Part shown: positions 2,539 through 54,583 of the stretch, piece after piece
How positions within the stretch are numbered: position 1 is the first letter of the stretch
Layout: each line of letters opens with the position of its first letter
NCBI GenBank assembly: GCA_028286945.1
Contig: JAQBQR010000020.1
Location: 1 to 57,298 of the forward strand
Length of the DNA: 57,298 nt
Direction of reading: 5' to 3'
Source: Parcubacteria group bacterium
Lineage (GTDB): Bacteria > Patescibacteriota > Minisyncoccia > Phycocordibacterales > Phycocordibacteraceae
Notes under the pieces: model-generated
Seen by the model: the letters and a program-made list of their open reading frames with translations, nothing else
Databases searched by the model: none
What the model was told of the DNA's origin: nothing
Made by a program: the position numbers and the translations under genes

Positions 2539-3320
2539 AATATTCTCGAAGTGTTGGGAGGATCACCCTTGCGGTGATCCTCCTCGCAGTGGTAGGTGTG
2601 CTGTTGTACGCCTACCCAACCTACTGCCTTTGGCTGGTCGTGTTGGTGATTGCGGCTTTCGCCGGGTACCTGACATGGCAACGCCTGACTGCAGGTGCAA
2701 CTGAAACAACGGATTCGGACGACAAAACCAGTCGTCCACCCAAGCTAACGGTCGTCCCCAAAAAGGACGCTCATGGAAGTGGTCTCAGTATCATTGCCAT
2801 TATCGCCATTTCCATTGGCAGTTGCTTGGTCATCCTGGCACTGGGCTGGTTTTTCCTGTATGGGGCTGGAAGCATCCCCCTATTTGGAGACCCGGGCACC
2901 GTGCACCACGTCAAGGTTCACGCATCGGCGAGAGCTTCGACACATGGGGGACGCTCACGCGTTTCCCTGGCCGAGGCTCGGGCTAAGGCGAAAACTGCAG
3001 CACTGGCCGAGCGTACCCGCATCTTGAAGCTCAAGATCGCGGTCGACTTCGACTACGACCACCCGCCGAAATGGACGCAGAATCCATACGGCGAATACGT
3101 TCTGCACTACAAGCTGGTTGTGGGGAAACGGCTTTTCATCCAATGCTCAGCATCGGACGACGAGCCTGATTTCCATGCGAAAGCCGATGACCTGGGCTAC
3201 TTCTGCTCGCCTGAGATGGCGACGGGAGCGAACTCGGGAAACTGGTTCCGCCCACTCGCCTATTCCAAGGAAGAAGGCAAAGAGCAGGTCATCATCTGGT
3301 TTACGCCGAAGGCCGTGTAA
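2535..3320 (+). CDS. Hypothetical membrane protein, translationally coupled to the SPFH-like gene
   Basis: ATGA start/stop overlap with the upstream gene, and GGAGGA lies 6 nt upstream. Two N-terminal TM helices, one central TM helix (LSIIAIIAISIGSCLVILALGWFFLY) and a C-terminal soluble domain. No recognisable motif. Confidence 0.6.
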   Translation: MKYSRSVGRITLAVILLAVVGVLLYAYPTYCLWLVVLVIAAFAGYLTWQRLTAGATETTDSDDKTSRPPKLTVVPKKDAHGSGLSIIAIIAISIGSCLVILALGWFFLYGAGSIPLFGDPGTVHHVKVHASARASTHGGRSRVSLAEARAKAKTAALAERTRILKLKIAVDFDYDHPPKWTQNPYGEYVLHYKLVVGKRLFIQCSASDDEPDFHAKADDLGYFCSPEMATGANSGNWFRPLAYSKEEGKEQVIIWFTPKAV

Positions 3321-4197: not shown

Positions 4198-4668
4198 CTA
4201 TGGCTTAACGGTGCCACCCGCCTTCTTACAATCGTCTGCGCTGGTCGGAACTGGGCTTCCGGATGACAAGATACACATAACGGGGGTTGAGCCATCAGGG
4301 ACGAAGTTTAGGCCATTTAGACCTGATCCGTTTGGTGTTGTGGCTGTTGAACCTGTTCCGGTGGAGTTTGAACAATTACTCGTATCGTTAAACGTAGGCA
4401 AACAAGGACGGTTGTTATTACTAAATCCGAACGTTCCCACCACCAAGTTGATAATTCCCCATACGGACATCATTACGGCAAATCCAATAACAGAATAAAT
4501 AATGATGTCTTTACCCTTTTTTCTTTTCTCTTCGTTATCAGCTCCCGCGATGAGGTATCGGAAAACACCGAAGACAAAGAAGAAGAACGCAAGCGCGAAG
4601 ATAACCGGCACCGCGATGTTATTGATAAAGTTAATTATCCCATTGGCAAGATTCGTGATCTGGGTCAT
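4198..4668 (-). CDS. Pilin-like small membrane protein, paralogue 3, with a Cys/Ser/Thr/Asn-rich C-terminal extension
   Basis: Core FINNIAVPVIFALAFFFFVFGVFRYLIAGADNEEKRKKGKDIIIYSVIGFAVMMSVWGIINLV. This is followed by a ~75-aa tail with 4 Cys and NxS/T-rich sequence. Confidence 0.7.
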   Translation of the reverse strand: MTQITNLANGIINFINNIAVPVIFALAFFFFVFGVFRYLIAGADNEEKRKKGKDIIIYSVIGFAVMMSVWGIINLVVGTFGFSNNNRPCLPTFNDTSNCSNSTGTGSTATTPNGSGLNGLNFVPDGSTPVMCILSSGSPVPTSADDCKKAGGTVKP

Positions 4669-7715: not shown

Positions 7716-10184
7716 CTACAGCGCAACCATCGAAGCAATGGAATCACCTTCACGCATTTTCATAATGCGAACTCCTTGCGTAGCGCGTGAAAGACTTGGG
7801 ATTTCGCCGGCAGATACGCGGATAACCTGACCCTTCTTTGAGATAACCACGATCTCCTCTTCTTTTGCTTCGTCGCCAATGAGGACGCGTGCACCAATAA
7901 TTTCTCCGGTCTTTGGGGTAACGTCGGCGGTCTTAATGCCTGAACCACCACGGCCTTGGATTTTGTACTCAGTGAGCGGCGTCTTCTTTCCGTATCCGTT
8001 TGCCATGATGATGAGGAGCGCCGCGTTCTTAGGGTCGGCATTCACCACTTCAGCAGACACGATGCGGTCGTCGCCCTTAAGACTCATTCCGCGAACGCCT
8101 GCAGCCGTGCGGCCCATGGCGCGTGTTTCCGCTTCTTCAAAACGAATACTCTGACCCTTTGAGGTAACTATAGAAATACTGTCTTCTGCAGCAGTAAGGT
8201 GTGCAGCCACAAGGCGGTCATCTCCCTTAAGATTGATAGCGATAATGCCAGAGCGGCGAACATCGGCAAAGGACTTTGCTTCAACCTTCTTAATGGTTCC
8301 TTGCTCTGTGACGAGAAATACTGAAAGCGCATCGCGTGCAGCTCCCTTCGGCGTTGCCAATACGCTGGTGACTTTTTCGTCAGCAGTCAGTGAAAGGAAG
8401 TTCATGATGGACTTACCCTTCGTGGCGCGCTTACCTTCGGGGATGTCGTACATCTTTGTTTGATATGCCTTTCCCTTATCAGTGAAGAAGAGGAGATCAC
8501 TGTGCGCAGATGCCTTGAGGAAGTGCGTCACCACATCCTCTTCCTTTGTTGAAATATCAATAACGCCTACGCCGCCGCGCTTCTGCGCTTTAAATTCGTC
8601 AGGGTTATTTCGTTTTACATAGCCGCCGGCGGTAAGTACCAAAACACTATCCTCGTCAGGAACAAGGTCTTCAACAGAAATATTCTTTACCCCACCTTTA
8701 ACAATCTTTGTGCGACGTGCATCAGCATACTTATCGGCAAGTTCAGAAAGTTCGCTGCGTACAAGAGCAAGAATGTTTTTTGCTGATGAAAGAATTTTCT
8801 TAAGGCGTGCAATGATCGTCTGGAGCTCAGATAATTCGTCTTCGATCTTCTTACGTTCAAGGCCAGCCAAAGTTTGGAGGCGCATAGAAAGAATGGCGGC
8901 TGTCTGACGCTCGGAGAATGCGAACTTTTTAATCAGGTTCTTTGATGCTTCTGGCACATCCTTTGCTTTCTTAATGATGGCAATGACTTCGTCAATGTGA
9001 TCGAGCGCTTTTGAAAGTCCGAGCAAAATATGTTCACGCTCTTCAGCCTTGCGGAGTTCGTATTCGGTGCGACGTTGTACTACGAGCTGGCGATGCTTAA
9101 TAAACTCTTCAAGCATGCCTTTGAGTGAAAGAGTTTGTGGGACTCCATCCACCAGTGCCAACATGTTGTAGTGAAAGGTGCTTTCAAGTTCCGTGTGCTT
9201 ATACAAAGAGTTCAGTACGGTCTGTGGATGCGCGGTTCCCTTAAGTTCCACTACTACGCGAATGTCAGACGTTGATTCATCGCGAAGATCACGAATACCT
9301 TCAATCTTTTTGTCTCGTACTAAATCAGCAATACGCGTAATGAGGTCTGATTTATTAACGCGGAACGGAATTGAGGTGATGACGATGTTCGTTCCCTTTT
9401 TGTCCTCGATAATCTCAGCTTCACCGCGAACCACTACGCCGCCGCGGCCTCCCGTGTATGCGTGTTTGATATCAGCCTGATTAAAGGCGATGCCGCCCAT
9501 TGGAAAGTCAGGTCCCTTAACAAACTGAAGGAGATCTTCCGTGGTTGCATCTGGGTTATCAATCAAATGCATCGTGGCGTCCGCAATTTCACGCAGGTTA
9601 TGCGGCGGGATATTCGTCGCCATACCCACAGCGATGCCGAGGGCTCCGTTAAGGAGAAGGTTTGGTGCTGCCGCAGGCAGCACCGTTGGCTCCTGTTTTG
9701 ATCCATCAAAGTTTGGCGCCCAGTCAACCGTTTCTTTTTCAAGATCTTCCAACATAGCTTCGGCCATGCGTGACATCTTCGATTCTGTGTATCGGTATGC
9801 AGCAGGCGGGTCACCGTCGATGGAACCGAAGTTTCCCTGGCCTTGTACGAGCGGATATCGCGTAGAGAAAGGTTGTGCCAGCTTCACCATGGCGTCGTAC
9901 ACAGATATGTCACCATGAGGATGGTACGAACCGAGCACCTCACCGACCACAGTTGCTGACTTACGGAACTTTGCCGTTGGCGTAAGACCTGTCTGGCGCA
10001 TAGCAAAAAGAATGCGTCGGTGCACAGGCTTCAGTCCGTCACGGACATCAGGAAGCGCACGACTCGTTATAACGGTCATCGCGTAGTCAATATATGACTG
10101 GCGCATCTCAGCCGTGATGGACTGATCTATGATGCGTTCCATCGCTTTAGGTGCTCCTGGTTCTGGTGCCTCGTTCTTTGCCAT
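7716..10184 (-). CDS. gyrA: DNA gyrase subunit A
   Basis: [27 protein letters not shown], active-site region AAYRYTESK and C-terminal beta-pinwheel repeats. 822 aa. Confidence 0.97.
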
Positions 10185-10193
10185 ATTAAAAAC

Positions 10194-10571
10194 CTAAAAC
10201 GCAATGTTAGTTGCCGACTGATTATTGGGGTTGCTCGTCGTCGCAAACGAAGAAGAGGTATTGCCGTCAACGATAGTGAGCGCAGGCTTACTGGTAGTGC
10301 CATTCGTTGCGGCGCCTACGGCGCCGAGTAATTGTGAAAAGTTAGACTTCACTCCCGTCCCCGCAAGAGTAGAGGAGTCAGCAGTAGTGTTTGTAGTGGC
10401 AGTTTGATCTGAGCCAACGGACGTATTACCAAGAGCAAATGTGTTGCTCGTTACCATTGAAGCAATCCAAATAAGTCCCACGAGTCCAGTCACCCCAGCG
10501 CTAGCACCCACCGCAATTCGCTTGCGTACGAGTTCGGGCTTTTCTTTCATATTGGCGATGAGTTTCTTCAT
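10194..10571 (-). CDS. Hypothetical membrane-anchored Ser/Thr-rich protein
   Basis: One TM helix (GVTGLVGLIWIASMV), then a low-complexity T/S/N-rich ectodomain. Confidence 0.5.
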   Translation of the reverse strand: MKKLIANMKEKPELVRKRIAVGASAGVTGLVGLIWIASMVTSNTFALGNTSVGSDQTATTNTTADSSTLAGTGVKSNFSQLLGAVGAATNGTTSKPALTIVDGNTSSSFATTSNPNNQSATNIAF

Positions 10572-11579: not shown

Positions 11580-11951
11580 ATGCGTAAGACATATCTCGCA
11601 TTGATCGCCGTCGTGTTCGCAAGCACTGCGTTTGCAACGCCGGCACTGGCAAGGTCGCATGATCGGACGCACACGGGCCAGTCGCCCGCTGCTCCGGCAA
11701 AGCGACATGCACGTCCGAACGGCACCCGTCACCACAAGAGTGCTAAGTCGTCGACGAGCGACGCCGACGCACAGGACTTGATTCTGGTGCCGGTCCTGAA
11801 TGGTCAGCCGAATCCGAATAATGATGAGGCTATGGATTCCGACGACGGCACGTTCGAACAGCCTGCTGATGGCATCACCCTGCAAGATGCCATCGTGGTG
11901 CTGATTCCGAACGTTAACACCTACGCTCCCGTCATTTCGGACCCGACCTGA
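11580..11951 (+). CDS. Hypothetical small secreted protein (123 aa), GC-rich cassette
   Basis: AGGAGG 5 nt upstream of the ATG. Signal peptide MRKTYLALIAVVFASTAFATPALA. 42/60 G+C at 11641-11700. A hairpin cccgacta...tagtcggg followed by ctttcgattt lies downstream. The overlapping minus-strand ORFs are Arg/Cys-rich shadows. Confidence 0.6.
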   Translation: MRKTYLALIAVVFASTAFATPALARSHDRTHTGQSPAAPAKRHARPNGTRHHKSAKSSTSDADAQDLILVPVLNGQPNPNNDEAMDSDDGTFEQPADGITLQDAIVVLIPNVNTYAPVISDPT

Positions 11952-14787: not shown

Positions 14788-15171
14788 ATGTCAGCTGCTC
14801 TTTTCCACGCTGGTCACTTTCAGGGAATCGGATGCAACCAAATAGGGTTCCATTCCCGAACAGCGACCGAAAATTATCTTCAAATTCTCTATGATGCCGA
14901 TGAGCGTCGTGGTGGAAAGGCTGGTCCTTATATGATTCTGGCCGCCGGCGCAATCGAGAATGTCTTTCAGCTCGAACGTATTTTGAAGCCACCACTTATC
15001 GCCCGCGATGTATTGGAGGGGCGTGAGGCGGTTTGGAATTTCAATGACGCAGACGACGCTAGGTATACATACAAGATTCTCACGTCGCTCGGCTCGGTAA
15101 ATGTCTGGATCTTCGTGAAGAGCGAGTACGCTCGCGAGTTCGGCGACACGTTCCTTCGTCCCGCGGCATAG
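14788..15171 (+). CDS. Hypothetical protein (127 aa) in the pth-lepB intergenic cassette
   Basis: AAGAGGA lies 8 nt upstream and a perfect 13-bp hairpin follows the stop. Strand chosen over the codon-aligned antisense ORF 14791-15252 on two counts. G occupies codon position 1 in about 48 of 128 plus-strand codons versus about 39 for the antisense. The product has 1 Cys versus about 7. Confidence 0.45.
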   Translation: MSAALFHAGHFQGIGCNQIGFHSRTATENYLQILYDADERRGGKAGPYMILAAGAIENVFQLERILKPPLIARDVLEGREAVWNFNDADDARYTYKILTSLGSVNVWIFVKSEYAREFGDTFLRPAA

Positions 15172-15267: not shown

Positions 15268-15819
15268 ATGAAGCTCTTAGGAAGCGCCGTAAAAGAAATT
15301 GCGATCTTCCTTGTGCTGGCGATTATCATCGTCCTCCCCATCCGCCTCTTCGTCGCGCAGCCATTCGTTGTTGAAGGCGAGAGTATGCATCCAACGTTTG
15401 AAAGCGGTGACTATCTCATCGTTGACGAGCTTACGTATCATTTTCATGAGCCACACCGCGGCGATGTTATCGTCTTCCGTTATCCTGGCGATCCTAAAGT
15501 CTTTTACATAAAACGCGTCATTGGTCTTCCTGGCGAAACCATCAGTATCACCGGAGGCCACGTAACCATTACGAAAGTAGATGGCAGCACGCTCACTCTT
15601 TCTGAGTCATACGTCGTTGACGAAGATGCTACGTACACACAAAGCACGCACATTGGTGCGGGAGAACTGTTCGTCATGGGAGATAACCGTCCAAAGAGCT
15701 CAGACTCACGTGTCTGGGGCCTTCTTCCAGAAAAGAACATCATGGGCCGCGCCTTTATTCGCCTCTTCCCTACAGGAGAGTTTGGCCTTAATCCCGGCGC
15801 TACCGTACAACCACAATGA
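15268..15819 (+). CDS. lepB: Signal peptidase I
   Basis: GESMHPTF (catalytic Ser), GDVIVFRYP, YIKRVIGLPGE (catalytic Lys box) and GDNRPKSSDSR. ATG at 15268 preferred. The track GTG at 15238 is possible. Confidence 0.92.
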   Translation: MKLLGSAVKEIAIFLVLAIIIVLPIRLFVAQPFVVEGESMHPTFESGDYLIVDELTYHFHEPHRGDVIVFRYPGDPKVFYIKRVIGLPGETISITGGHVTITKVDGSTLTLSESYVVDEDATYTQSTHIGAGELFVMGDNRPKSSDSRVWGLLPEKNIMGRAFIRLFPTGEFGLNPGATVQPQ

Positions 15820-16949
15820 GTACCTCACTTCGACCCGAAGACCTTGTAAAGCGAGCCGCTGCGATAGGCAGTTACTACGGTTTCTCGTCTTTGGCTTCGC
15901 TAACGTCTAAGAAAACTGCGTCCCGTGCTCCGTATCCTGACGGGGTTAATCCAGAAACGCTTGATCCCACAGCACGCGAAGTAGTGGGCTTCTTGAAGCA
16001 CGTTCGCGACGCTAACCTCACACCGCCACTTGGACAGCCGCTTTTCATCTGGCACACAAATGCTGCTCCAGGACGTCCTGCACCAAAGCAGATCATCATT
16101 CAGTTCCATGCGCTTGGTACAGAGCGTGCCATTGCTGACGCCGTACTTATGCGTGCGGTACGAGCCTTTATGCAGGATCTTACAAAAGATGAGCTCACCC
16201 TCCGCATTAACAGCATGGGCGATAAAGAGACGCGTAGCCGATTCTCACGGGAACTAGGAACCTTCTTCCGAAAGCACGGACCGATTCTCCCTGAGGCTTG
16301 CGTTACTTCTGCAAAAAACGACGTCTTTGAAGCAGCAGAACTTTTGGCCACCATAGATGCTGGGAGTCTGCCTGCCCCAACAGACCATTTGAGCGAAGCG
16401 AGTCGTAAACATTTCGAAGGAGTCATTGAATACCTCGAGGCGAGCGATACGGCGTATGAACTCGCGCCAGAGCTCCTTTCAAAAGGTCCTTCGTGGACAG
16501 AAACAGCATTTGAAATAAAGGGCGGTGGTTCTTTGAATGCATGGGGTTCCCGCTATAACGAGCTTTCACGTCCGTTCTTCTCAACACCGATGCCGGGAGT
16601 TGGTGCGGTTATCCGTATCACCACGGACGTACGCGACACACTTCCTGCACTTAAGCCTGCAAGCAGCCCTCGTTTCGTCTTCGTACACATAGGCGACGAA
16701 GCTAAGCGCGAAAGTATGAAAATGGCAGACACGCTCCGCAAAGCGCGTATTCCACTCACCCAGTCCATCGGTATTGAATCTTTGACCGAACAAATGCGTC
16801 AGGCTGAGATCACGAACCCACCGTATCTTTTGATCATGGGTCGCAAAGAAGCCCTTGAACGTTCCGTTATTCTCCGCCACCGCGCTAGCTACACAGAAAC
16901 CTTCATTCCTCTCGATTCACTCGTGGATCACCTTAAGGGCGTCGCCTAA
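15816..16949 (+). CDS. Histidyl-tRNA synthetase-like paralogue with degenerate catalytic motifs (HisZ-like pseudo-synthetase)
   Basis: Collinear with HisRS by eye. It has a class II core and an HGTP anticodon-binding-like C-terminus (FVFVHIGDEAKRESMKMADTLRKARIPL...PPYLLIMGRKEALERSVILRH). GGRYD is GSRYN, the motif-2 FRHERPQ.GRYRQF region is WHTNAAPGRPAPKQIIIQF, and RGLDYY is SKGPSW. Confidence 0.6.
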   Translation: MSTSLRPEDLVKRAAAIGSYYGFSSLASLTSKKTASRAPYPDGVNPETLDPTAREVVGFLKHVRDANLTPPLGQPLFIWHTNAAPGRPAPKQIIIQFHALGTERAIADAVLMRAVRAFMQDLTKDELTLRINSMGDKETRSRFSRELGTFFRKHGPILPEACVTSAKNDVFEAAELLATIDAGSLPAPTDHLSEASRKHFEGVIEYLEASDTAYELAPELLSKGPSWTETAFEIKGGGSLNAWGSRYNELSRPFFSTPMPGVGAVIRITTDVRDTLPALKPASSPRFVFVHIGDEAKRESMKMADTLRKARIPLTQSIGIESLTEQMRQAEITNPPYLLIMGRKEALERSVILRHRASYTETFIPLDSLVDHLKGVA

Positions 16950-29551: not shown

Positions 29552-30733
29552 TTATTTTGAATGATCCTCAAGCACCTTTATATAATTCTGAAGTCGACTA
29601 AGGAGTTCGTCGTAAGTAACGAAGACGATATTCTTTGTCGACTGACAGAGAAGTCTGAAGTCATCGCGCTCCTTGCCAGGGCTAAATTTGCGAGTGTCGC
29701 CAGCGAGAATGATTCCGCGTGGTCGGACGACCTTGAGCTCAATGCCATAGGTATCACGAATATAATTCCGCACAACGTCTGCTTGATGCTGTACGAATTC
29801 AATATAGTTTTCGACCTGAATTATGGCTTTGGCAATTTCAGGATCCCAGTAATAGTTCTTTCGTCCCGCATCATACTTCAAAAGCTGCGTATTAGGCTTC
29901 TTAATCTCCAAAATATCGAGGTAGTTATCGTGCGTCACAAGCATGAAGTCTGGATACTTTGTACCGCCGATAGCCACGTTCATCTTCTCTATTGCAGATA
30001 TATACCCCTGCTGGATGATAAGAATGTTTCCCTTAATGTACGTCTGCCACCAACCTTCAGAATAGGTACCATCGAGAGCCTTTTCGAGGTTAGTAGCTAA
30101 TTCCTTAAGTGTCTTTATCTGTGCTCCTGCTTTCAAGAGGTTAACTGTGTTGAGTGATTCTGATGCGATATAGTCGGGTAGGAATGTATTCATAGCTTCT
30201 CGATCTTCAGCCGATAGACGTGGAATGATTTCACCGTTCAACATATGGGAAAGAGTTCCAGCCACATATACGGGAGTCGAGCTATGCGTGAAGTGCGATG
30301 GATAAACGATGGAGAAGAAGTTAGCGACTGTATCATTCTTGATATCTCTCGTCCTATCCCTGAGGGTATCTCCCATTCTTTTCAGAGTTTTTTGCGAAGT
30401 ACGGATTCGCTGAATACCCCGCTCAAATTTTATAGAATCCTCTTCAGGTGTAATGATCCAGCGAAATCGTTCATTCCCGAACTTACGCTTCAGTGCCTCG
30501 AGTATATGTTTCCCAAAGGAAATGGACCCATCTTCCTTACTGAGACCCTTCGGCATCTTGCCTTCGTAGTAGATCTTGATCCCCTTGAGGGCATTGCCGT
30601 AGCCCTTATTCGAAACGACTACGTATTTATCTTCTTTTTTCTTTTTGGGCACGGGCTTCTTCACAGTCTTCTTGACTGCTTTCTTTAGGATTTTCTTCTT
30701 TGCTACCTTCTTTCTAGAAGCCATGTACCACAT
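29552..30733 (-). CDS. Shedu-like DUF4263 PD-(D/E)xK nuclease with a lysine-rich N-terminal tail
   Basis: GGTKYPDFMLVTHDNYLDILEIKKPNTQLL contains PD...ExK, followed by IIQVENYIEF (QxxxY). Both are characteristic of SduA/DUF4263 and RecB-like nucleases. N-terminus is KKVAKKKILKKAVKKTVKKPVPKKKK. An alternative ATG lies at 30724. Confidence 0.65.
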   Translation of the reverse strand: MWYMASRKKVAKKKILKKAVKKTVKKPVPKKKKEDKYVVVSNKGYGNALKGIKIYYEGKMPKGLSKEDGSISFGKHILEALKRKFGNERFRWIITPEEDSIKFERGIQRIRTSQKTLKRMGDTLRDRTRDIKNDTVANFFSIVYPSHFTHSSTPVYVAGTLSHMLNGEIIPRLSAEDREAMNTFLPDYIASESLNTVNLLKAGAQIKTLKELATNLEKALDGTYSEGWWQTYIKGNILIIQQGYISAIEKMNVAIGGTKYPDFMLVTHDNYLDILEIKKPNTQLLKYDAGRKNYYWDPEIAKAIIQVENYIEFVQHQADVVRNYIRDTYGIELKVVRPRGIILAGDTRKFSPGKERDDFRLLCQSTKNIVFVTYDELLSRLQNYIKVLEDHSK

Positions 30734-30811
30734 TCTATGCTTCTCTCAGGACAGCACAATGGTTATAAAGTTCCGTGTCCACTTCAAGAGGAACACTGGC
30801 GCTCAATCCAG

Positions 30812-30896
30812 CGGAGAGGGGGAGATTCGAACTCCCGATACCTTTCGGTATGCCGGTTTTCGACACCGGTCGTTTCAACCACTCACGCACCCCTCC
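30812..30896 (-). tRNA. tRNA-Ser (anticodon CGA), long variable arm
   Basis: The reverse complement folds as follows. Acceptor ggagggg/cctctcc, anticodon stem ccggt/accgg with loop gtCGAaa, variable arm cataccgaaaggtatc, T arm gggag-ttcgaat-ctccc. Confidence 0.85.
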
Positions 30897-30963
30897 AAGT
30901 GCTTATATGACTCGCCTATCCTATCATTTTCCGAAGAAAATGATATCGTATCAAAGTTCACAT

Positions 30964-31035
30964 GGTCCCATCGTCTAACGGTTAGGACGCGGCCCTTTCA
31001 CGGCTGAAATCGGGGTTCGATTCCCCGTGGGATCA
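30964..31035 (+). tRNA. tRNA-Glu (anticodon UUC)
   Basis: Acceptor ggtccca/tgggatc, anticodon stem cggcc/ggctg with loop ctTTCac, T arm cgggg-ttcgatt-ccccg. Confidence 0.9.
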
Positions 31036-31036
31036 C

Positions 31037-48990: not shown

Positions 48991-51383
48991 TAGAAGATTT
49001 CGCACGTACCTGCGACGCAGGCCAATTCCTTCTTGAGCTCAGTCTCATCAGATCGTTCGTACTGCATGAGCTTTGCGTAATCCACCACAGGGAACGACTT
49101 TGCACGACGCTCATATTCCTCCTTTGATATTGCTTCGTATGGAGCAAGACGGTACGCATGGTTATCGCGAGGAAGGAATGAAAGTCCTCCAACCATTTCC
49201 CAGTTTTCATATACCCAGTTAGCAACTTGGATCCATTCATCATCACCCACCGAAACCGTTACTGATGGGTTGTGCTCGGTGAAGTTCTCTTTCACAAGCT
49301 TCCAGTGAGCGAGCTGATCGAGGGCGGTCACGTCATCTTTACATACTGCACCTTCAGGAGCCTTTACCGGAAATTCCAGCACATACGTATTCGCCGAGTC
49401 TACGTCCTGACCCACTTCTGGGTAGTACGGCACGCCGGCGTCACGCATAAACTTGAAGAGTGAATCGGTTGCGCTGATGCGGATACGGCGAATGTAGAAC
49501 GGTGAATGACGGGCGTGCATACCACTTGCTACGTCGAAGGTCTGAGAAACGGTACCTGAAGGCTTCACACACGTGATTGCCATTGAAGCATTGATGCCGA
49601 ACCTCTCTGCATACTTCTTATTTATCTTGATTGTTTCGGCACGCATTGAATCAAGAACGTCAGCGTTTCGAACTGCCTTAGAATCCCACTGTCCGGTGAT
49701 TGAAACACCAAGAAGACGCTCTGCCTCACAGTTCTCTGTCCACTCCTTAGAAAGGTAGCTGAGGTTAGTAAGAGTCGACTGGTACGTTCCGAGGATGGTA
49801 GCGAGTCGCGCTTTACGCATTAGGGATTCCTTAGTGTCGTCAGCACGAGCAATGACCTCTGTAAGGTTACAGAACTGCTTTGACTTAAGGATGATTTCGC
49901 CGCAAGGATTAGTTCCTGACGGACCAATTACCTTGTCATTCTTTATGTATCCGCTCTCTTCCCAGAATTTAATGCGACGTGCAGGAAGCTGCTTCATAAG
50001 ACCACCGCGGTTAAAGATGCCGCGCTCTCCGGTACGACTCTTCATAAGTGATACCCACTCATCCATGAACTCCTCGTTCGATGGCTTTACCAAATATACG
50101 GCTGAGTTGTTTGCAATGGAGCGATGCGGATCACTCATCCAGAACTGACCCTTCTTTGCGTCGCGAACTTCCGTGTCATCAAGATCTGAAAGGGAAATCA
50201 TGGCGCTGCGGCGGACACCACCAGCAACCACACATTCACCGATCTTACAGATCATGTCGTGCACATCAATGTTGCGAAGACGACGTCCCTGACGGGCGAA
50301 GATGCGTTCACGTGAGAAGGCAAGAAGGCTGCGAAGAGGTTCAGGGCCTGAAGCCTTTCCACCCATTGTCTTCAAACGTGCACCGGCAGGACGAATCTGT
50401 GAAAGATCGAAATCAATATCCTTTCCTGCAAACCACGTCTGGAGACCAAGTGTAAGTGCATCGCACCACCCTTCCTTTGAGTCACCGACCATGTGTGTCT
50501 CCACCTTCTCGTTAGTCTGAAATGCAATCTGGGGAAGCTGCTGCACCGTTGCACTTTCTACGGAGTAGCCAACGCCGGTACCTTGCATTGAGATGTACAT
50601 GATCTCTGCGAAATCACGGAGCTTAGTGGGAGCGATGAATGAACAGTTGTACGCAGGAACGTTACAACGCTCAACTGCTTCGCCAGCGAACTGCATGAGA
50701 CGCATGGACGGCATGATCTGCTGATTGAGGATCGCTTCGCGAATTTCAAGGTACTCCTTGCGCGTAAGCTTATCGCCCAGATTCTTGTGCATGAAATTTA
50801 TGTAGCGGTTGACGGTCTCAACCCAGGTCTCACGACGACCCTGTTCCGGAATCCACTTCGAGTAGCTGCGAAGATAGACGAATTCACCGAGTGCGTTGCC
50901 TTTGAAATACCCCTTACTCTCATCTGCAATAGCGCGAAATTCCGCAGGAATTTCGATTGCTTCTGAACGGAGCTGGTTGCGCTTATCGCGATAAAGAATG
51001 TATGCCTTCGCCGTAGCGGTGAAGTCGTTGAGCATGAGCTGCTTTTCAACCGCGTCCTGAATACCCTCAACCGTTGGGAGGAAGTTCTTATACTTCTTTG
51101 CAAATCGTGCCAACTCTCCTGCCACCTGGTGCGCAACAAGGATTGCGTCATCAAGACCTCCCTCATTCGCAGCCAACATGGACTTCTCAACCACGCTTAC
51201 GATTTTCTCAAACGAGAATGGAACAATGCGTCCATCACGCTTTTCCATCTGAGGAATGAGTTCTCGATATCGTTTCGTCTCTCGACTCTCTGGTGCTTTC
51301 TCTACAGCAACCGCAGCAACTGCAGGCGCAACAGACTTAGTAATTTTCTTCGCGCGCACCGGTGCTTTTGCAGATTTTGCCAT
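48990..51383 (-). CDS. nrdJ: Adenosylcobalamin-dependent (class II) ribonucleotide reductase with an N-terminal ATP-cone
   Basis: ATP-cone-like KRDGRIVPFSFEKIVSVVEKSM, catalytic GTNPCGEIIL and a C-terminal redox pair in CVAGTCEIF. 797 aa. Confidence 0.85.
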   Translation of the reverse strand: MAKSAKAPVRAKKITKSVAPAVAAVAVEKAPESRETKRYRELIPQMEKRDGRIVPFSFEKIVSVVEKSMLAANEGGLDDAILVAHQVAGELARFAKKYKNFLPTVEGIQDAVEKQLMLNDFTATAKAYILYRDKRNQLRSEAIEIPAEFRAIADESKGYFKGNALGEFVYLRSYSKWIPEQGRRETWVETVNRYINFMHKNLGDKLTRKEYLEIREAILNQQIMPSMRLMQFAGEAVERCNVPAYNCSFIAPTKLRDFAEIMYISMQGTGVGYSVESATVQQLPQIAFQTNEKVETHMVGDSKEGWCDALTLGLQTWFAGKDIDFDLSQIRPAGARLKTMGGKASGPEPLRSLLAFSRERIFARQGRRLRNIDVHDMICKIGECVVAGGVRRSAMISLSDLDDTEVRDAKKGQFWMSDPHRSIANNSAVYLVKPSNEEFMDEWVSLMKSRTGERGIFNRGGLMKQLPARRIKFWEESGYIKNDKVIGPSGTNPCGEIILKSKQFCNLTEVIARADDTKESLMRKARLATILGTYQSTLTNLSYLSKEWTENCEAERLLGVSITGQWDSKAVRNADVLDSMRAETIKINKKYAERFGINASMAITCVKPSGTVSQTFDVASGMHARHSPFYIRRIRISATDSLFKFMRDAGVPYYPEVGQDVDSANTYVLEFPVKAPEGAVCKDDVTALDQLAHWKLVKENFTEHNPSVTVSVGDDEWIQVANWVYENWEMVGGLSFLPRDNHAYRLAPYEAISKEEYERRAKSFPVVDYAKLMQYERSDETELKKELACVAGTCEIF

Positions 51384-51527
51384 GAGGTAAGAGGTTAGGA
51401 TAATTGGCGTCGACGAAAGAGAACGTGCATGTGTTTTCTATGAAATGCTTTGATTTGAAATCGACGTTCGTCCATTGTACCTGTCTTCATCTTCGCCACC
51501 TATGTGGACAAAGGTCAGCAGAAAACA

Positions 51528-52037
51528 TTACGCACCGTAGGGCAAGGGGAGTGGGATTTTTGTTCCAACTTCCCATCCGCGTCTGCGCATTTCACCGGCC
51601 TTTGTCTCTAGGACATACTTCACTGGCTTTGGTGGATACACGGAATTCGGATACGTGTTTGGAGAAATACTGTCCTCAATACCAAGCACCGTGCCGTTGT
51701 CCGAAAGCCATACAATGTCGATGGATACCTGCATATCTTTCATCCAAAACCCGACATTAAAATCCTGAGCGAAAACGAATAGCATTCCGTAGTTCTCAGG
51801 AATGACCGTGCGACCGCCAAGTCCGCGCTCTTGAGCAGCGTCCGTGGTAACTACTTCAAAATGCATGGGCTGAATAGGGTCAGAGACCAAAGGAGATGTA
51901 CTTGAAACCGAAAGAGTGCCCGACTTTCCGGTTGTATAGGACAAACTTTGTGCGCCTGGGGTAAGGAAAACAAGAAGCGCGATTATAACGGACACTGCGA
52001 GTAAGGTGTAAAGGACATGATGTCTTTTAAGATTCAT
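51528..52037 (-). CDS. DUF192 (COG1430) family protein with a signal anchor
   Basis: ERGLGGRTVIPENYGMLFVFAQ...FWMKDMQVSIDIVWL...VKYVLETKAGE. Confidence 0.7.
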   Translation of the reverse strand: MNLKRHHVLYTLLAVSVIIALLVFLTPGAQSLSYTTGKSGTLSVSSTSPLVSDPIQPMHFEVVTTDAAQERGLGGRTVIPENYGMLFVFAQDFNVGFWMKDMQVSIDIVWLSDNGTVLGIEDSISPNTYPNSVYPPKPVKYVLETKAGEMRRRGWEVGTKIPLPLPYGA

Positions 52038-52082
52038 ACGTAGATGGTTGGCTGATGGTATAACCCTTAGTATACTATCTGC

Positions 52083-52421
52083 ATGACTTCCCTTGCTGAT
52101 TTTTCAAATACGTTTTCAGACTCTGTACGAAAAGTTGTTGCCGGCATCCCCACTGGAAAGGTGGCCACATACGGCCAGGTCGCCGAACTTGCTGGGCGCC
52201 CTCGTGCTGCACGTGCCGTGGGTATGGTTATGCGGACTAACAAAGATACGAAAGCGGTGCCTTGTCACCGCGTTGTGGGATCAAATGGCGCGTTAACCGG
52301 ATACGCGTATGGCAGCGGTGTTACCACCAAAAAGCAGATGCTTCAAAAAGAAGGTGTCGCCTTCCGCGGTGAACGCGCAGACCTTGCGGTCTCTCAGTGG
52401 CAGCCAAAAATACAGAAGTAG
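52083..52421 (+). CDS. ogt: Methylated-DNA--protein-cysteine methyltransferase, single-domain form
   Basis: GKVATYGQVAELAGRPRAARAVG (helix-turn-helix) and the active site VPCHRVV. 112 aa. The last 35 nt are duplicated at 54387-54422. Confidence 0.8.
   Translation: MTSLADFSNTFSDSVRKVVAGIPTGKVATYGQVAELAGRPRAARAVGMVMRTNKDTKAVPCHRVVGSNGALTGYAYGSGVTTKKQMLQKEGVAFRGERADLAVSQWQPKIQK
52387..52421 (+). repeat. Direct repeat, copy 1 (the present 3-prime end of ogt)
   Basis: cggtctctcagtggcagccaaaaatacagaagtag. Copy 2 differs by one extra A and one A-to-G change. Confidence 0.9.
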
Positions 52422-52435
52422 TAACTGTGTAGAAA

Positions 52436-52465
52436 TTGACAATACCTTATATATAAGGTATTGTG
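52436..52465 (+). promoter_or_regulatory. TTGACA -35 overlapping a perfect 24-bp palindrome (operator-like), with a TATTGT -10 candidate
   Basis: TTGACA at 52436-52441. The palindrome caataccttata/tataaggtattg spans 52440-52463, and tattgt lies at 52460-52465. Confidence 0.5.
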
Positions 52466-52500
52466 AGTGGCAGTAAACCGCATTCTTTAGGGGACACGAC

Positions 52501-54318
52501 ATGAGTCGCATTACCGTCGCGAGGGGGGTGTGGACCACATTCCGCACGTCCTTCACCAACGTCCATCGCGAACTGCTTAGCATCGATCGCACCTACGTCA
52601 TATACGAATGGTGTAGCGATATTCTCGGTACTGTTCGCACTCTGGGAATCGTTGTTGCCGGTGGAGCGATTCTACAAGAAGCGCTCCGTAAGTCCACACC
52701 TTCGTGGACACTGGTGCTTATCGGAATGATGGGGTTTGCGCTTTACAGCGTATTCACCACCCTTCTACACAGTTGGTTAACCGAACGCGGCGAGATCTTT
52801 GACGCCTTATACTTCACACAAACCGAACGTCGCATGGCGAAGCATCTTTCGACGCTTGATCTCGGCAGAATGCTGGACCCTGCGTTTCTCGAGCTTTCCC
52901 AAATGGCAGATCGGAGAGGCACTCACTCGATCAATAGCTTATGGAGTACGCAGCGACAAACGGTTGCCGCCGCTCTTGGCATTCTGCTATCTTCGGCAAT
53001 TATATTGAATCTCGATCCATTTCTCGGACTACTTGCGATATGCTTCGCGCTTCCGCAAGTACTCCGTACGTGGTTCAGGGAGAAGCGACATCGTGAACTG
53101 GACGAGCAAGAAGCGCTTACTCGTCGGCAGCGAAACGAAGTGAATGAGAGTATATCGGTGGCTCGCCTTGCGGTGACCACTCGACTGCTCTCGCTCACGA
53201 GATCGTTCGTCGACTATTACGACGATCTTACCGCAGTACTGTTCAATAATATCCGCGTGCTTGCTCGATTCAACCGCCACTGGCGGCTCGGGATCGGGTT
53301 GATCGAGATGGTCATCCTCTGCCTATTCCTCTGGCACTTTGCCAGCGGGTTGGTTGGGGGGAAATACACGATCGTTGCAATGGCAGCAATCTTCGCAAGC
53401 ATGCACATGCTTTCGAGTGAACTGTCAGGCTTCGGCAGCTCTCTTGCGCACATGGATCATCTCCAGCGCGACTACGACTATCTCGTTTCGTTCTTCGAGA
53501 CGAAGCCGCTCGTGGATGAGAGCCTCTGCAGCGACGTACAGTTCCGTCACACACCGACGATTACGGTCGACCATGCGTCGTTCACGTATCCCGGTTCCGG
53601 CGATCCTGCACTTCGCGACTGCTCGCTCATCATCAAGCCCGGTGAGAAAATCGCGCTTGTGGGCAAAAACGGCAGCGGGAAGACAACCCTGCTCCGCATG
53701 CTCGCTCGTGTGTATCTTCCTTCATCGGGAACGATCCTTGCGAATAGCACATCTCTCGCAAAGATGAAGCAAAACGCCTGGCTCGGACATGCGGCGATGA
53801 TCGTTCAAGACGGAATGCTCACCGGTGTCGAGCTTGCGCGGGCCCTGACCGGAAAACCGGCAGATGCACTGAGCGCAGAAGAGCTCGATCGCCTATGGAA
53901 AGCACTCGAGCTCACCGACGCAAAGTCCCTCGTACTTGAGGATCCGCGCGGACTTTCGGTCTGGAACGGACCGGAATGGCCGAACGGTCGAGGTTTCTCG
54001 ACCGGCCAAGAGCAGCGATTGCTGCTTGCAGCTGGCATGTATCGGGCCCTTGAAGCCCAGATGCATGTAGTGATGCTCGACGAGCCAACGGCAAATTGCG
54101 ATGCTGAGATGAAGGCAAACTTCTTCTCCGCTCTTGCGAATGCGCCTGAGCTCGCTCGGCATACGATCCTCGTGAGCATGCACGATCCTCTCTATCTGCA
54201 CTTTTTCAACCGCGTGCTGCAATTCGAAAACGGCATGCTGGTGAACGATTTGCGGAACCCGGAGGAAATCGAAAAGTATAGGAAAGACATCGCGCTTTCA
54301 CTCGCGCATGATCTATAA
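52501..54318 (+). CDS. ABC transporter, fused permease/ATP-binding half-transporter (type I exporter fold)
   Basis: N-terminal about 330-aa TM domain. Walker A GKNGSGKTTL, signature FSTGQEQRLLLA, Walker B VVMLDEPT and H-loop SMHDP. Confidence 0.85.
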   Translation: MSRITVARGVWTTFRTSFTNVHRELLSIDRTYVIYEWCSDILGTVRTLGIVVAGGAILQEALRKSTPSWTLVLIGMMGFALYSVFTTLLHSWLTERGEIFDALYFTQTERRMAKHLSTLDLGRMLDPAFLELSQMADRRGTHSINSLWSTQRQTVAAALGILLSSAIILNLDPFLGLLAICFALPQVLRTWFREKRHRELDEQEALTRRQRNEVNESISVARLAVTTRLLSLTRSFVDYYDDLTAVLFNNIRVLARFNRHWRLGIGLIEMVILCLFLWHFASGLVGGKYTIVAMAAIFASMHMLSSELSGFGSSLAHMDHLQRDYDYLVSFFETKPLVDESLCSDVQFRHTPTITVDHASFTYPGSGDPALRDCSLIIKPGEKIALVGKNGSGKTTLLRMLARVYLPSSGTILANSTSLAKMKQNAWLGHAAMIVQDGMLTGVELARALTGKPADALSAEELDRLWKALELTDAKSLVLEDPRGLSVWNGPEWPNGRGFSTGQEQRLLLAAGMYRALEAQMHVVMLDEPTANCDAEMKANFFSALANAPELARHTILVSMHDPLYLHFFNRVLQFENGMLVNDLRNPEEIEKYRKDIALSLAHDL

Positions 54319-54331
54319 CGTACCTTACCCT

Positions 54332-54364
54332 TACCCCGCCTACACCAGGCGGGGTACGTTTTTA
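54332..54364 (+). terminator. Intrinsic terminator of the ABC cassette
   Basis: taccccgcc-tacacca-ggcggggta followed by cgttttta. Confidence 0.7.
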
Positions 54365-54386
54365 TAGCAACCATTTGTAGCTACTT

Positions 54387-54422
54387 CGGTCTCTCAGTGG
54401 CAGCCAAAAAATACAGAGGTAG
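54387..54422 (+). repeat. Direct repeat, copy 2 (presumed ancestral 3-prime end of ogt)
   Basis: cggtctctcagtggcagccaaaaaatacagaggtag. In the ogt frame it would read ...VSQWQPKNTEVGK then stop. Confidence 0.9.
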
Positions 54423-54434
54423 GGAAGTGAAGTG

Positions 54435-54521
54435 CGGAGACGGAGAGATTCGAACTCTCGAGACCCTTTCGAGCCTGCCGCCTTTCCAAGGCGGTGCACT
54501 AGACCACTATGCGACGTCTCC
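54435..54521 (-). tRNA. tRNA-Ser (anticodon GGA), long variable arm
   Basis: Reverse complement. Acceptor ggagacg/cgtctcc, anticodon stem ccgcc/ggcgg with loop ttGGAaa, T arm gagag-ttcgaat-ctctc. Confidence 0.88.
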
Positions 54522-54542: not shown

Positions 54543-54583
54543 AAAGGGAAGTGGCAGCTCGAAATGAGCCGCCACTTCCCTTT
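54543..54583. terminator. Hairpin downstream of htpX
   Basis: aaagggaagtggc...gccacttcccttt, a 13-bp stem with a 15-nt loop. Confidence 0.55.

Follow-up and report, generated by a model that had tools for sequence, protein, structure and literature searches.

The stretch of DNA analysed here (the window, 57,298 nucleotides of a Parcubacteria group genome) carries a copy of ogt at positions 52083–52421 of the forward strand. The gene encodes a 112-aa O6-alkylguanine-DNA alkyltransferase of the MGMT family with a PCHRVV active site (PF01035, 5.5e-30; TIGR00589). It is a resident gene, syntenic with ogt in the related loci L003, L009, L129 and L133, and its last 35 nt are duplicated. The first copy of the duplicated sequence (R1, 52387–52421, forward strand) encodes (A)VSQWQPKIQK and the stop codon and is the true, functional 3' end of ogt, the product ending in ...AVSQWQPKIQK. 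As the initial annotation had stated, these nucleotides recur at 54387–54422 (R2, 36 nt, forward strand). The two copies are identical over 24 nt (52387–52410 and 54387–54410), and the remainder of R2 (54411–54422, compared with 52411–52421) carries an additional A and an A/G substitution, making 2 differences in 36 positions between R1 and R2. No repeat of this kind was expected by chance (100 shuffles), and the window contains no third copy. The SQWQPK motif is kept in ogt of the relatives, and both copies are therefore ogt-derived. R2, of which the first 5 nt are CGGTC, is a displaced and now non-coding fragment. The pair thus has the layout of an island at the 3' end of a gene, with a regenerated target end and a displaced fragment as direct repeats.

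The 1,965 bp between the two copies consist of a promoter, the gene for a 605-aa ABC exporter and a terminator only. All parts of the self-contained unit that had been described between the copies were located. The ABC gene (52501–54318, forward strand) is the only ORF of the insert, which leaves 79 nt before it and 68 nt after it, and AGGGGA lies 7 bases 5' of its ATG. The promoter (52436–52464, forward strand) is sigma-70-like, TTGACA-17 nt-TATTGT, with 10 of 12 matches. Its -35 and -10 hexamers are overlapped by a perfect palindrome, ACAATACCTTATA/TATAAGGTATTGT (52439–52464), which is unique in the window; the TTGACA and the palindrome had been recognized before, but the latter is 26 bp long rather than 24 bp. 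An intrinsic terminator with a 10-bp GC-rich stem followed by a T-run lies at 54332–54365 (forward strand).

The ABC protein is a fused permease/ATPase resembling the ABCB/CydC half-transporters (PF00005, 1.1e-20). Its Walker A (residue 388), FSTGQ signature (residue 499) and Walker B (residue 523) motifs are intact, and an N-terminal transmembrane domain is fused to the nucleotide-binding domain that carries them, as in exporters of the ABCB/type IV half-transporter class. Partial NCBIfam matches to CydC, CydD, MsbA and LssB all fell far under the cut-offs and no equivalog cut-off in NCBIfam was reached. The PDB matches were ABCB1 and CydC, and the NCBIfam and PDB alignments to CydC, MsbA and ABCB1 extended into residues 139–350. 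The product is predicted to be a homodimeric ATP-driven exporter, and its gene would be repressed through the palindrome, presumably an operator, by a regulator encoded elsewhere.

The G+C content of the cassette was 0.537, compared with 0.505 and 0.478 in its flanks. For the ABC gene it was 0.546 against a gene mean of 0.490 (sd 0.034), that is, +1.6 sd. The corresponding GC3 values were 0.620 and 0.486 (sd 0.067), or +2.0 sd, a value exceeded by three other ORFs of the window. The earlier count of 36/60 G+C at 53521–53580 was correct, but the enrichment by which the cassette had been called GC-rich is modest.

A second copy of the cassette and its foreign origin

Among 5.8 billion proteins, the ABC protein had one close homologue (P0002, 85% identical); the next was 47% identical. 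The gene for P0002 belongs to a more distantly related member of the Parcubacteria, L002 (GCA_965094815.1), and occupies another locus, next to tRNA-Ser(CGA). Between the two genomes, housekeeping proteins share only 32–76% identity (FtsZ 76%, FtsA 71%, TrxB 68%, TsaD 55% and DHH 52%). Because the ABC proteins, at 85%, lie above this range, the comparison points to horizontal acquisition of the ABC gene. The donor search that the initial annotation had proposed thus returned a sole close relative in a distant lineage, which supports a foreign history of the cassette; the raised GC3 of the ABC gene and its absence from the slot of closer relatives count in the same direction.

The unit common to the two genomes (52432–54391 of the window, forward strand; 78.5% identity by blastn, and aligned end to end) runs from the promoter -35 to the terminator plus ~30 nt. 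Homology starts ~4 nt upstream of the -35 hexamer and stops at TTCGGTC, and its left edge falls within 10 nt of that of the repeat-bounded insert, whereas the right edges coincide exactly (0 nt). The -35 hexamer and the terminator are conserved in L002. The 26-bp palindrome has only an imperfect palindrome as its counterpart there; a dif-like or lox-like site was rejected for it on account of this lack of conservation and its overlap with the promoter, an operator being the simpler reading.

Each of the two known cassette copies is 19–47 nt away from a tRNA-Ser 3' end (GGA in the window and CGA in L002). At the L002 cassette there were no flanking direct repeats, and by-eye alignments of R-like sequence in its flanks were not significant (p=0.17–0.47 and 0.09–0.21). 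If L002-like DNA was the donor context, a single event would set both boundaries.

The slot between ogt and tRNA-Ser in related genomes

The resident tRNA-Ser(GGA) gene (54434–54521, reverse strand; ARAGORN) has its 3' end toward the insertion and occupies the same position in L003, L009, L129 and L133. It lies beyond R2 as had been noted, at a distance of 11 nt and not 13 nt. Around it the related genomes share a backbone, RNR-DUF192-ogt-slot-tRNA-Ser(GGA)-M48-NUDIX-LemA-GroEL. Two of them, L129 (45 nt) and L133 (26 nt), reached through the ogt homologues P0127 and P0125, have an empty slot: ogt is followed there by a hairpin of 26–45 nt and then tRNA-Ser(GGA). The slot holds Ham1 in L003, DPRP in L009 and an island in others; five different states, empty ones included, occur among the relatives. 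The ABC gene was found in the slot of the window only, and closer relatives (RNR 92–95% identical) have no ABC gene there. Thus, with a conserved backbone whose slot is empty or alternatively filled, the ABC cassette is an insertion at this locus. The empty site that had been anticipated, with ogt directly before tRNA-Ser, is present in the relatives, and the slot states, R1/R2 and the homology of the ABC unit together bear out the earlier view that a self-contained foreign unit entered the 3' end of ogt.

A pattern scan for the empty site (ogt end 6–36 nt from a tRNA-Ser 22-mer) gave 0 matches in metagenome contigs, and the 5 matches in genome contigs were attributed to chance; no strain-level relative with an empty site was found. 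The empty form of this particular locus would read ogt-R-GGAAGTGAAGT-tRNA. In L004 and L006 a separate island has hit tRNA-Ser(GGA). Neither the window nor L002 contained a displaced tRNA-Ser fragment, such as a tRNA-targeting integrase would leave behind.

The two repeat copies start exactly 2000 nt apart, and the initial annotation had raised an artefact of assembly or construction. Logan contig L001 (SRR13312974), made by a different assembler, equals window positions 50695–54459 with a single mismatch at 51696. It spans both insert junctions, including ogt-ABC-R2 and the 3' end of the tRNA gene, within which the Logan contigs break off. Because this independent contig reproduces both junctions, the spacing is not an artefact, and that explanation was rejected.

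Anatomy of the junctions

The junctions of the insert are imprecise. At the left junction, ten orphan bases, TAACTGTGTA (52422–52431, forward strand), separate R1 from the unit shared with L002 and are not homologous to the flank of the L002 cassette. Positions 52423–52434 (AACTGTGTAGAA) are the exact reverse complement of 52763–52774 within the ABC gene, ~330 nt away; this 12-nt inverted match was found post hoc (p ~0.012). The orphan bases may have been templated from inside the insert. At the right junction, CGGTC is common to the end of the cassette and the start of the ogt repeat (TTCGGTC against TTGCGGTC), a microhomology of 5–7 nt as judged from the single comparator L002, where the cassette also ends in TTCGGTC with no ogt nearby. 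Such microhomology is a mark of illegitimate insertion, and together with orphan, apparently templated bases it argues for illegitimate recombination and against a conservative, site-specific one. Precise junctions and repeated use of one attachment site by related elements, which characterize integrase-borne islands, were not found.

The best inverted match between the cassette ends had p=0.11 in the window and p=0.32 in L002, giving no terminal inverted repeats. An 8-mer, AGTGGCAG, that occurs four times within 2.2 kb was considered as a signal and dropped, about two extra matches being expected by chance.

Searches for a recombinase and for attachment sites

No recombinase domain was detected in the insert or in the 20 larger window ORFs scanned, in agreement with the earlier remark that the cassette has no integrase or transposase. 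The insert, with the ABC ORF as its only gene, encodes no integrase of its own as a genomic island would. Terminal inverted repeats and a short fixed target-site duplication, the marks of DDE and other transposons, are likewise lacking: the duplication is 35 nt long here and absent in L002. The insert has direct repeats and no recombination genes; in a CIME, such repeats would act as attL and attR. Viral contigs carried no relative of the ABC gene; their 27 matches to a degenerate ogt-end pattern had no ogt ORF upstream and were ascribed to chance, and no phage or other contig with an orphan ogt end was found. There was no cognate ICE or IME using the same att in the window, the related loci or the viral contigs.

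Among 72 ogt loci screened for a repeated 3' end, L073 alone had one. There, an ogt-proximal direct repeat encloses cargo without a recombinase. Its motif differs from R, is not native ogt and occurs downstream of ogt in L127 and L128; it is fused to ogt in L073 alone, which weakens L073 as an exact parallel. Rfam searches of L073 and L127 returned tRNA only. A screen for duplicated ORF ends (691 ORF ends) gave a further case, L065, in which a ZIP-transporter gene has at least 70 nt of its 3' end repeated (~88% identical) 1.9 kb downstream at a recombinase-less insert. Overall, 3'-end repeats were present in 2 of ~52 ogt loci, one of them ascertained, as compared with ~1 of 640 other ORFs, which is not a significant enrichment. 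The ogt 3' end was accordingly rejected as a recurrent att site, having no significant ogt specificity and with duplications occurring elsewhere too. The repeat as an attachment site, as originally proposed, was absent from the L002 cassette, the viral contigs and the 72 ogt loci, the L073 motif being a different one.

Discussion

The insertion may well have been a one-off, microhomology-mediated illegitimate event that was independent of any recombinase. In the ancestor, ogt would have been followed directly by the tRNA-Ser(GGA) gene, meeting its 3' end, an arrangement that two relatives still have. Foreign DNA of ~1.96 kb, forming one complete expression unit, would then have been inserted ~35 nt before the ogt end, and the event would have re-copied the last 30–35 nt of the gene, so that the working end (R1) was kept and the old end (R2) was stranded beside the tRNA gene. 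The route may have been break repair or a microhomology-mediated template switch, with imported DNA as the substrate; this DNA would have entered by uptake. A duplication of 30–35 nt would fit a template switch that returned upstream of its departure point; in an anchor-assisted variant, homology to ogt would have held the incoming DNA in place. An entirely unrecognised insertion mechanism, which the initial annotation had offered, is not required.

Illegitimate and homology-facilitated illegitimate recombination of imported DNA were reportedly described by de Vries and Wackernagel in 2002 and by Hulter and Wackernagel in 2008, both cited in PMC8116780. Such recombination and MMBIR-type repair resemble the present case in the short GC-rich microhomology join, the orphan templated bases and the lack of an element-encoded enzyme. 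However, illegitimate events in transformable bacteria (the HFIR/DIR literature) usually entail loss of target DNA, not its duplication. In the classical bacterial cases, recipient DNA is said to be deleted or replaced, whereas 30–35 nt of the target are duplicated here. Several further observations count against the same reading. The proximity of both copies to tRNA-Ser is not predicted by purely random insertion, and the insert begins and ends very close to a functional promoter and terminator. The microhomology was defined with one comparator, L002, and the filler match (p ~0.01) post hoc; the window is 57 kb of a genome in which a recombinase could act in trans. Moreover, regeneration of a gene's 3' end through a 35-nt duplication is the textbook signature of integration by an integrase (PMC4383910).

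Site-specific integration by a recombinase that acted in trans or has since been lost is the main competitor, although we consider it rather unlikely. The cassette would be CIME-like, with R as the att core and R1 and R2 as attL and attR, and a cognate integrase whose gene lies elsewhere might, at the same rather low probability, still excise or move it. CIMEs have lost their integration and transfer genes and kept attL and attR (PMC5704250). The insert shares with the streptococcal ones direct repeats at the 3' end of a protein gene and the lack of integration and transfer genes (PMC5704250); it differs from CIMEs in that no cognate ICE, IME or integrase was seen, the second cassette copy has no repeats and the att role of R is putative. 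Islander-type islands, which employ tyrosine integrases, use tRNA genes or gene 3' ends (PMC4383910). The locus resembles them in its regenerated 3' end, displaced far copy, foreign cargo of deviant composition and position next to a tRNA gene, but has no integrase, is a single gene in 1.96 kb, leaves the tRNA gene unsplit and has imprecise junctions.

This classical geometry of regenerated target and displaced fragment (PMC4383910), together with the movement of the cassette as a defined unit, speaks for integration. So do the island in tRNA-Ser(GGA) of L004 and L006, by which integrative elements are active at the locus, and the recombinase-less cargo within the ogt-proximal repeat of L073. 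The L073 motif, however, is of different sequence and not native to ogt, and ogt ends are not significantly enriched for repeats. The insert and the 20 scanned ORFs have no integrase, L002 has the cassette with neither R nor a flanking repeat, viral contigs have no orphan ogt end, and the microhomology and apparently templated bases are unlike conservative recombination. Of the integration originally proposed, the regenerated end and displaced fragment stand, whereas att behaviour was not found and the junctions are imprecise; a decayed or trans-mobilised cassette can still be entertained, but is the weaker reading given the junction anatomy. Conjugative elements are not a known feature of CPR bacteria.

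A two-step import appears improbable. A fragment with ogt and the ABC gene from a related strain would have recombined by homology in or upstream of ogt and been joined at CGGTC, R1 coming from the donor and R2 remaining from the resident allele. The 2/36 differences between R1 and R2 are what donor and recipient alleles might show, the right junction has the microhomology and L065 offers an analogous remnant (the ZIP-transporter 3' end). Yet this scheme needs an earlier, unobserved adjacency of ogt and the ABC gene and leaves the orphan bases of the left junction unexplained. The ogt body, moreover, shows no sign of a foreign segment; it has diverged from its relatives like the neighbouring genes (81% at the nucleotide level, collinear with L003).

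Equally doubtful is a broader proposal, in which the 1.96-kb unit would represent a minimal mobile cassette of CPR bacteria. Having no recombinase of its own, it would move between lineages, land by preference within ~50 nt of tRNA-Ser 3' ends or at nearby gene ends and generate duplications of ~30–35 bp of the target through an enzyme or repair route yet to be described; L073 (ogt) and L065 (ZIP) would be further products.

Saunders and Snyder are said to have described minimal mobile elements of Neisseria in 2002, variable cassettes between conserved flanking genes. The present slot, between ogt and tRNA-Ser/M48, is similar in holding Ham1, DPRP, ABC or nothing. In contrast, those elements use homologous recombination of the flanks without duplication, and the L002 cassette lies in other flanks. 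Integron cassettes and pdif modules are likewise single gene-sized units that move without their own recombinase, but the present unit has no attC-like or dif-like ends, a non-conserved palindrome over its promoter and a promoter of its own.

Transposition or another staggered-cut insertion, in which an enzyme would have acted on defined ends of the cassette and left R as a target-site duplication of 35 bp, is very improbable. A target duplication does flank the insert and the cassette has the same boundaries in two genomes, but there are no terminal inverted repeats, no transposase and no comparable duplication in L002, and one junction has extra orphan bases. The target duplications of known bacterial transposons, at 2–15 bp, are far shorter than 35 bp. 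Least credible of all, and hardly to be entertained, is the absence of any insertion, with ogt-ABC-tRNA-Ser being ancestral and lost elsewhere or an assembly chimera: an empty site in a strain-level relative was not found, pattern scans of metagenome and genome collections gave none and the Logan contigs break inside the tRNA gene, but an orphan ogt end beside that gene needs an insertion or duplication, the relatives show five slot states with the ABC gene limited to two lineages at different loci, and both ogt-ABC-R2 and the 3' end of the tRNA gene are present in an independent assembly.

In their anatomy, the junctions look like the work of illegitimate recombination of the repair type more than of a classical mobile element. 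Gene gain in the tiny, streamlined genomes of CPR/Patescibacteria is poorly documented. At this locus the gain of one functional gene, which encodes an exporter and has a regulated promoter of its own, is resolved to the base, with empty, alternative and filled states of the slot among the relatives. If the association with tRNA-Ser and the 30–35-bp duplications were recurrent, this would be a hint that genes flow among these bacteria by a cassette-type route; if not, the locus would be a well-resolved but ordinary scar of gene gain. In this clade, the flanks of both tRNA-Ser genes are hot spots for accessory genes, among them the ABC gene, Shedu, Ham1, DPRP and a methylase island.

The ogt end is duplicated on either side of an ABC-exporter cassette

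The window carries ogt, a 112-aa MGMT-family gene (52083-52421; PF01035, 5.5e-30; TIGR00589), whose last 35 nt (R1, 52387-52421, encoding ...AVSQWQPKIQK*) are found again as R2 at 54387-54422. The two copies were identical over their first 24 nt; beyond these, an A-run was one A longer in R2, and a single position was A in one copy and G in the other. No match as good was obtained in 100 shuffles, and no third copy was found within the window. Because the SQWQPK motif is conserved in the ogt of relatives, R1 and R2 are both truly ogt-derived. The 1,965 bp separating them contained a promoter (TTGACA-17-TATTGT, 52436-52464), an overlapping perfect palindrome of 26 bp (52439-52464) that occurred only once in the window, an AGGGGA ribosome-binding site, an ABC ORF of 605 aa (52501-54318) and a terminator composed of a hairpin and a T-run (54332-54356). 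The tRNA-Ser(GGA) gene lay 11 nt past R2 on the minus strand (54434-54521). The initial annotation had described this sequence correctly almost to the base, although it gave the palindrome, rightly called perfect, as 24 bp. The cassette was indeed GC-rich, as had been stated, but modestly so: its G+C content was 0.537 versus 0.505 and 0.478 in the flanks, and the ABC gene deviated from 50 ORFs of the window by +1.6 sd (GC) and +2.0 sd (GC3), with three of these ORFs higher in GC3. These three (1426-2538, 2535-3320 and 11580-11951, plus strand; GC3 0.63-0.65) had no Pfam match and may be other acquired genes. The M48 terminator (18-bp stem, 54543-54583, minus strand) contained AGTGGCAGC, which shared 13 of 16 bases with the ogt repeat core, and the 8-mer AGTGGCAG occurred four times in 2.2 kb; both were judged compatible with chance.

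An assembly or construction artefact had been raised as a possibility. The Logan contig L001 (SRR13312974, 3,765 bp) matched window 50695-54459 with a single difference, at 51696, spanning ogt, R1, the ABC gene and R2 and ending within the tRNA, and a second contig of SRR13312974 (L134) covered M48 as far as the opposite side of the tRNA. A break inside the tRNA is expected of a de Bruijn graph when co-occurring relatives share the tRNA sequence. Thus, the arrangement is not an artefact, and the exact 2000-nt spacing of the copies is a coincidence.

The slot beside tRNA-Ser(GGA) is variable among relatives

The names attached to ogt homologues placed the window in Parcubacteria/Paceibacterota. 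Relatives (nucleotide identity ~77-81%; RNR protein 92-95% identical) shared the gene order RNR, DUF192, ogt (plus strand), slot, tRNA-Ser(GGA) (minus strand), M48, NUDIX, LemA and GroEL/ES. The slot between ogt and the tRNA 3' end was variable, holding a Ham1-like gene in L003, L005, L007 and L008, a DPRP gene in L009 and the ABC cassette in the window. In L129 and L133 only a hairpin (45 and 26 nt, respectively) separated the ogt stop from the tRNA, and hence the empty site that the initial annotation had envisaged is present in this clade. An insertion into a site of this kind would leave behind just such an orphan ogt end as R2, which lies 11 nt from the tRNA.

L004 and L006, strain variants of L003, left the L003 sequence exactly inside the tRNA 3' end, after GTGCGG (L004:8960-16330 and L006:4230-11600, compared with L003:8964-9051). 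The island beyond this point encoded two N6/N4 DNA methylases, an HTH_Tnp_1_2 protein, unknown ORFs and an MFS transporter, and no intact tRNA was detected in it by ARAGORN within 7 kb. It appears to be a distinct integrative element at this tRNA-Ser(GGA). The other flank, from the tRNA 5' end to M48, was also variable: it held a free-standing LAGLIDADG_3 homing-endonuclease-like ORF in the L003 group (L003:9038-9706, minus strand) and a CAP-domain gene with a 1,108-aa ORF in L133 (6498-10954, minus strand), and was empty in the window, L009 and L129.

A second copy of the cassette lies beside another tRNA-Ser gene

A search of 5.8 billion proteins yielded a sole close homologue of the ABC protein, P0002 (85%), the next being at 47%. 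The P0002 gene in locus L002 (GCA_965094815.1) was flanked by a methyltransferase gene and a tRNA-Ser(CGA)/tRNA-Glu pair. The same pair was present in the window (30811-31036), where the slot occupied by the cassette in L002 held a Shedu anti-phage defence gene (SduA_C, 9e-29; 29552-30733, minus strand; low G+C, 0.436), 77 nt from the 3' end of tRNA-Ser(CGA) (30811-30896). The 3' flanks of both tRNA-Ser genes behave as accessory-gene hot spots.

The two genomes were only moderately related (FtsZ 76%, FtsA 71%, TrxB 68%, TsaD 55%, DHH 52% and another shared protein 32% identical), and the ABC protein was the most similar protein common to them. Nucleotide homology extended from ~4 nt before the -35 hexamer to ...TTCGGTC, ~30 nt past the terminator; the shared unit therefore equals the repeat-bounded insert, with a discrepancy of at most 10 nt at the left end and none at the right. 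By these comparisons, the cassette is foreign and moved as a unit. GC3 was 0.50 in the L002 copy, which is host-like, and 0.62 in the window copy, a contrast that suggests a more recent arrival in the window genome from a GC-richer source. L002 also carried a 283-aa reverse transcriptase gene (RVT_1; 15637-16488, minus strand) ~6 kb from the cassette, which could be part of a retron, a DGR or a group II intron; nothing evident linked this gene to the cassette.

Junction sequences and the mechanism of insertion

At the right junction, the last bases of the cassette, TTCGGTC, overlapped the start of the ogt repeat by five bases (CTTGCGGTC followed, across the boundary, by TCTCAG). TTCGGTC was also present in the L002 copy, which has no ogt nearby, and the overlap is a microhomology. 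At the left junction, ten bases (TAACTGTGTA) came from neither ogt nor the shared cassette. The 12-mer AACTGTGTAGAA at this junction (52423-52434) was the exact reverse complement of 52763-52774 in the ABC gene, 330 nt away; a match as long within 2.5 kb was found for 1.2% of random 19-nt window segments (p about 0.012, for a match noticed post hoc). The corresponding coding sequence of L002 differed.

Microhomology together with filler templated from nearby sequence is characteristic of break repair driven by a polymerase, or of template switching, and not of conservative site-specific recombination. A template switch would leave the chromosome at the end of R, copy the foreign unit and return to the chromosome via CGGTC at the start of R, which would produce exactly the order R1-filler-cassette-R2. 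On the basis of the junction microhomology and the apparently templated filler, we prefer an illegitimate, microhomology-mediated insertion, a mechanism that we infer with roughly even confidence.

The initial annotation favored site-specific, att-like integration. A regenerated gene end with a displaced fragment, as observed here, is the classical signature of an island (PMC4383910), and integrase-less elements that retain attL and attR are known as CIMEs (PMC5704250). However, no recombinase gene was found in the insert, as had been annotated, and no recombinase domain in the 20 other window ORFs scanned; the junctions were not clean, and neither a flanking repeat nor an R-like sequence was found around the L002 copy. 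Further, no displaced tRNA-Ser fragments and no phage contigs with the ABC gene or an orphan ogt end were detected. An integrase that acted in trans or has since been lost is thus a possible but distinctly less probable explanation. A tRNA-Ser 3' end lay 19-47 nt away from each of the two cassette copies, the chance of which is ~0.5-5% by a rough estimate that varies with framing. This favors the rivals of illegitimate insertion, and our only comment is that both flanks are hot spots. Even so, it is doubtful that the cassette is a true minimal cassette targeting tRNA-Ser-proximal sites by an undescribed route, and an anchor-assisted two-step import is equally doubtful. Transposition is very improbable, as terminal inverted repeats were not significant (p=0.11 in the window, p=0.32 in L002) and the duplication is 35 nt long. 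That there was no insertion, or only an artefact, hardly deserves consideration.

The locus behaves as a genomic islet of very small size. It differs from integrase islands in lacking an integrase and in its imprecise junctions, and from transposons in its lack of inverted repeats and its 35-nt duplication, whereas, of the three features expected of microhomology-mediated insertion, it showed two: the junction microhomology and, apparently, the templated filler. What is new here is a recombinase-less single-gene insertion with the displaced-fragment signature in a CPR genome; the general kind is already known. The event is well resolved and informative on gene gain in streamlined genomes, and will be no great surprise to the specialist.

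The ABC protein and its promoter

The ABC protein was a fused transmembrane-domain/ATPase half-transporter with intact Walker A, signature and Walker B motifs. Its best partial matches (CydC, CydD, MsbA, LssB and ABCB1) were all far below the equivalog cut-offs, and members of the wider family (40-47% identity) were stand-alone genes in unrelated contexts. Given this architecture and the stand-alone relatives, we read the product as a putative homodimeric exporter, to which the matches assign no substrate. The perfect palindrome that overlaps the promoter is a candidate repressor operator; its L002 counterpart was imperfect, and no regulator gene was encoded in the cassette.

Other repeat-bounded inserts

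A search for duplicated ogt ends in 72 ogt loci turned up one further case. In L073, a 29-nt direct repeat (8305-8333 and 14949-14977; 28/29 identical, 6,644 nt apart), whose first copy formed the last codons of ogt, enclosed UPF0182, P-type ATPase and DedA-like (DedA/VTT) genes, with no recombinase in the insert. L127 and L128, which are relatives of L073, had a single copy of the motif, 37 nt downstream of the ogt stop, and there it encoded a conserved mini-ORF, M(V/I)W(A/S)(Y/C)FK(Q/N); fusion to ogt was limited to L073. As the motif is separate from ogt in these relatives, L073 is only a partial parallel to the window, and as such, a second ogt-end repeat around recombinase-less cargo counts for the rivals of illegitimate insertion. 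Within the UPF0182 gene of L073, a 30-nt unit (GCTTATTCGAAGAAAAGCGAGCCTCTGCGA) was present in four identical copies in tandem (9174-9293), and L127 carried an rve-family (IS481/IS3-like) transposase gene (9456-10436, plus strand) immediately after ogt and the S motif.

When 691 ORF 3' ends were screened as a control, one more duplication of this type was revealed. In L065, a ZIP zinc-transporter gene had its 3' end (4499-4570) repeated 1.9 kb downstream (2600-2670; at least 70 nt, ~88% identical), and between the copies lay a gene resembling fatty-acid hydroxylases and an unknown ORF of 264 aa, with no recombinase in the insert. This architecture matched that of the ogt case in the window, and the phenomenon is therefore not demonstrably ogt-specific.
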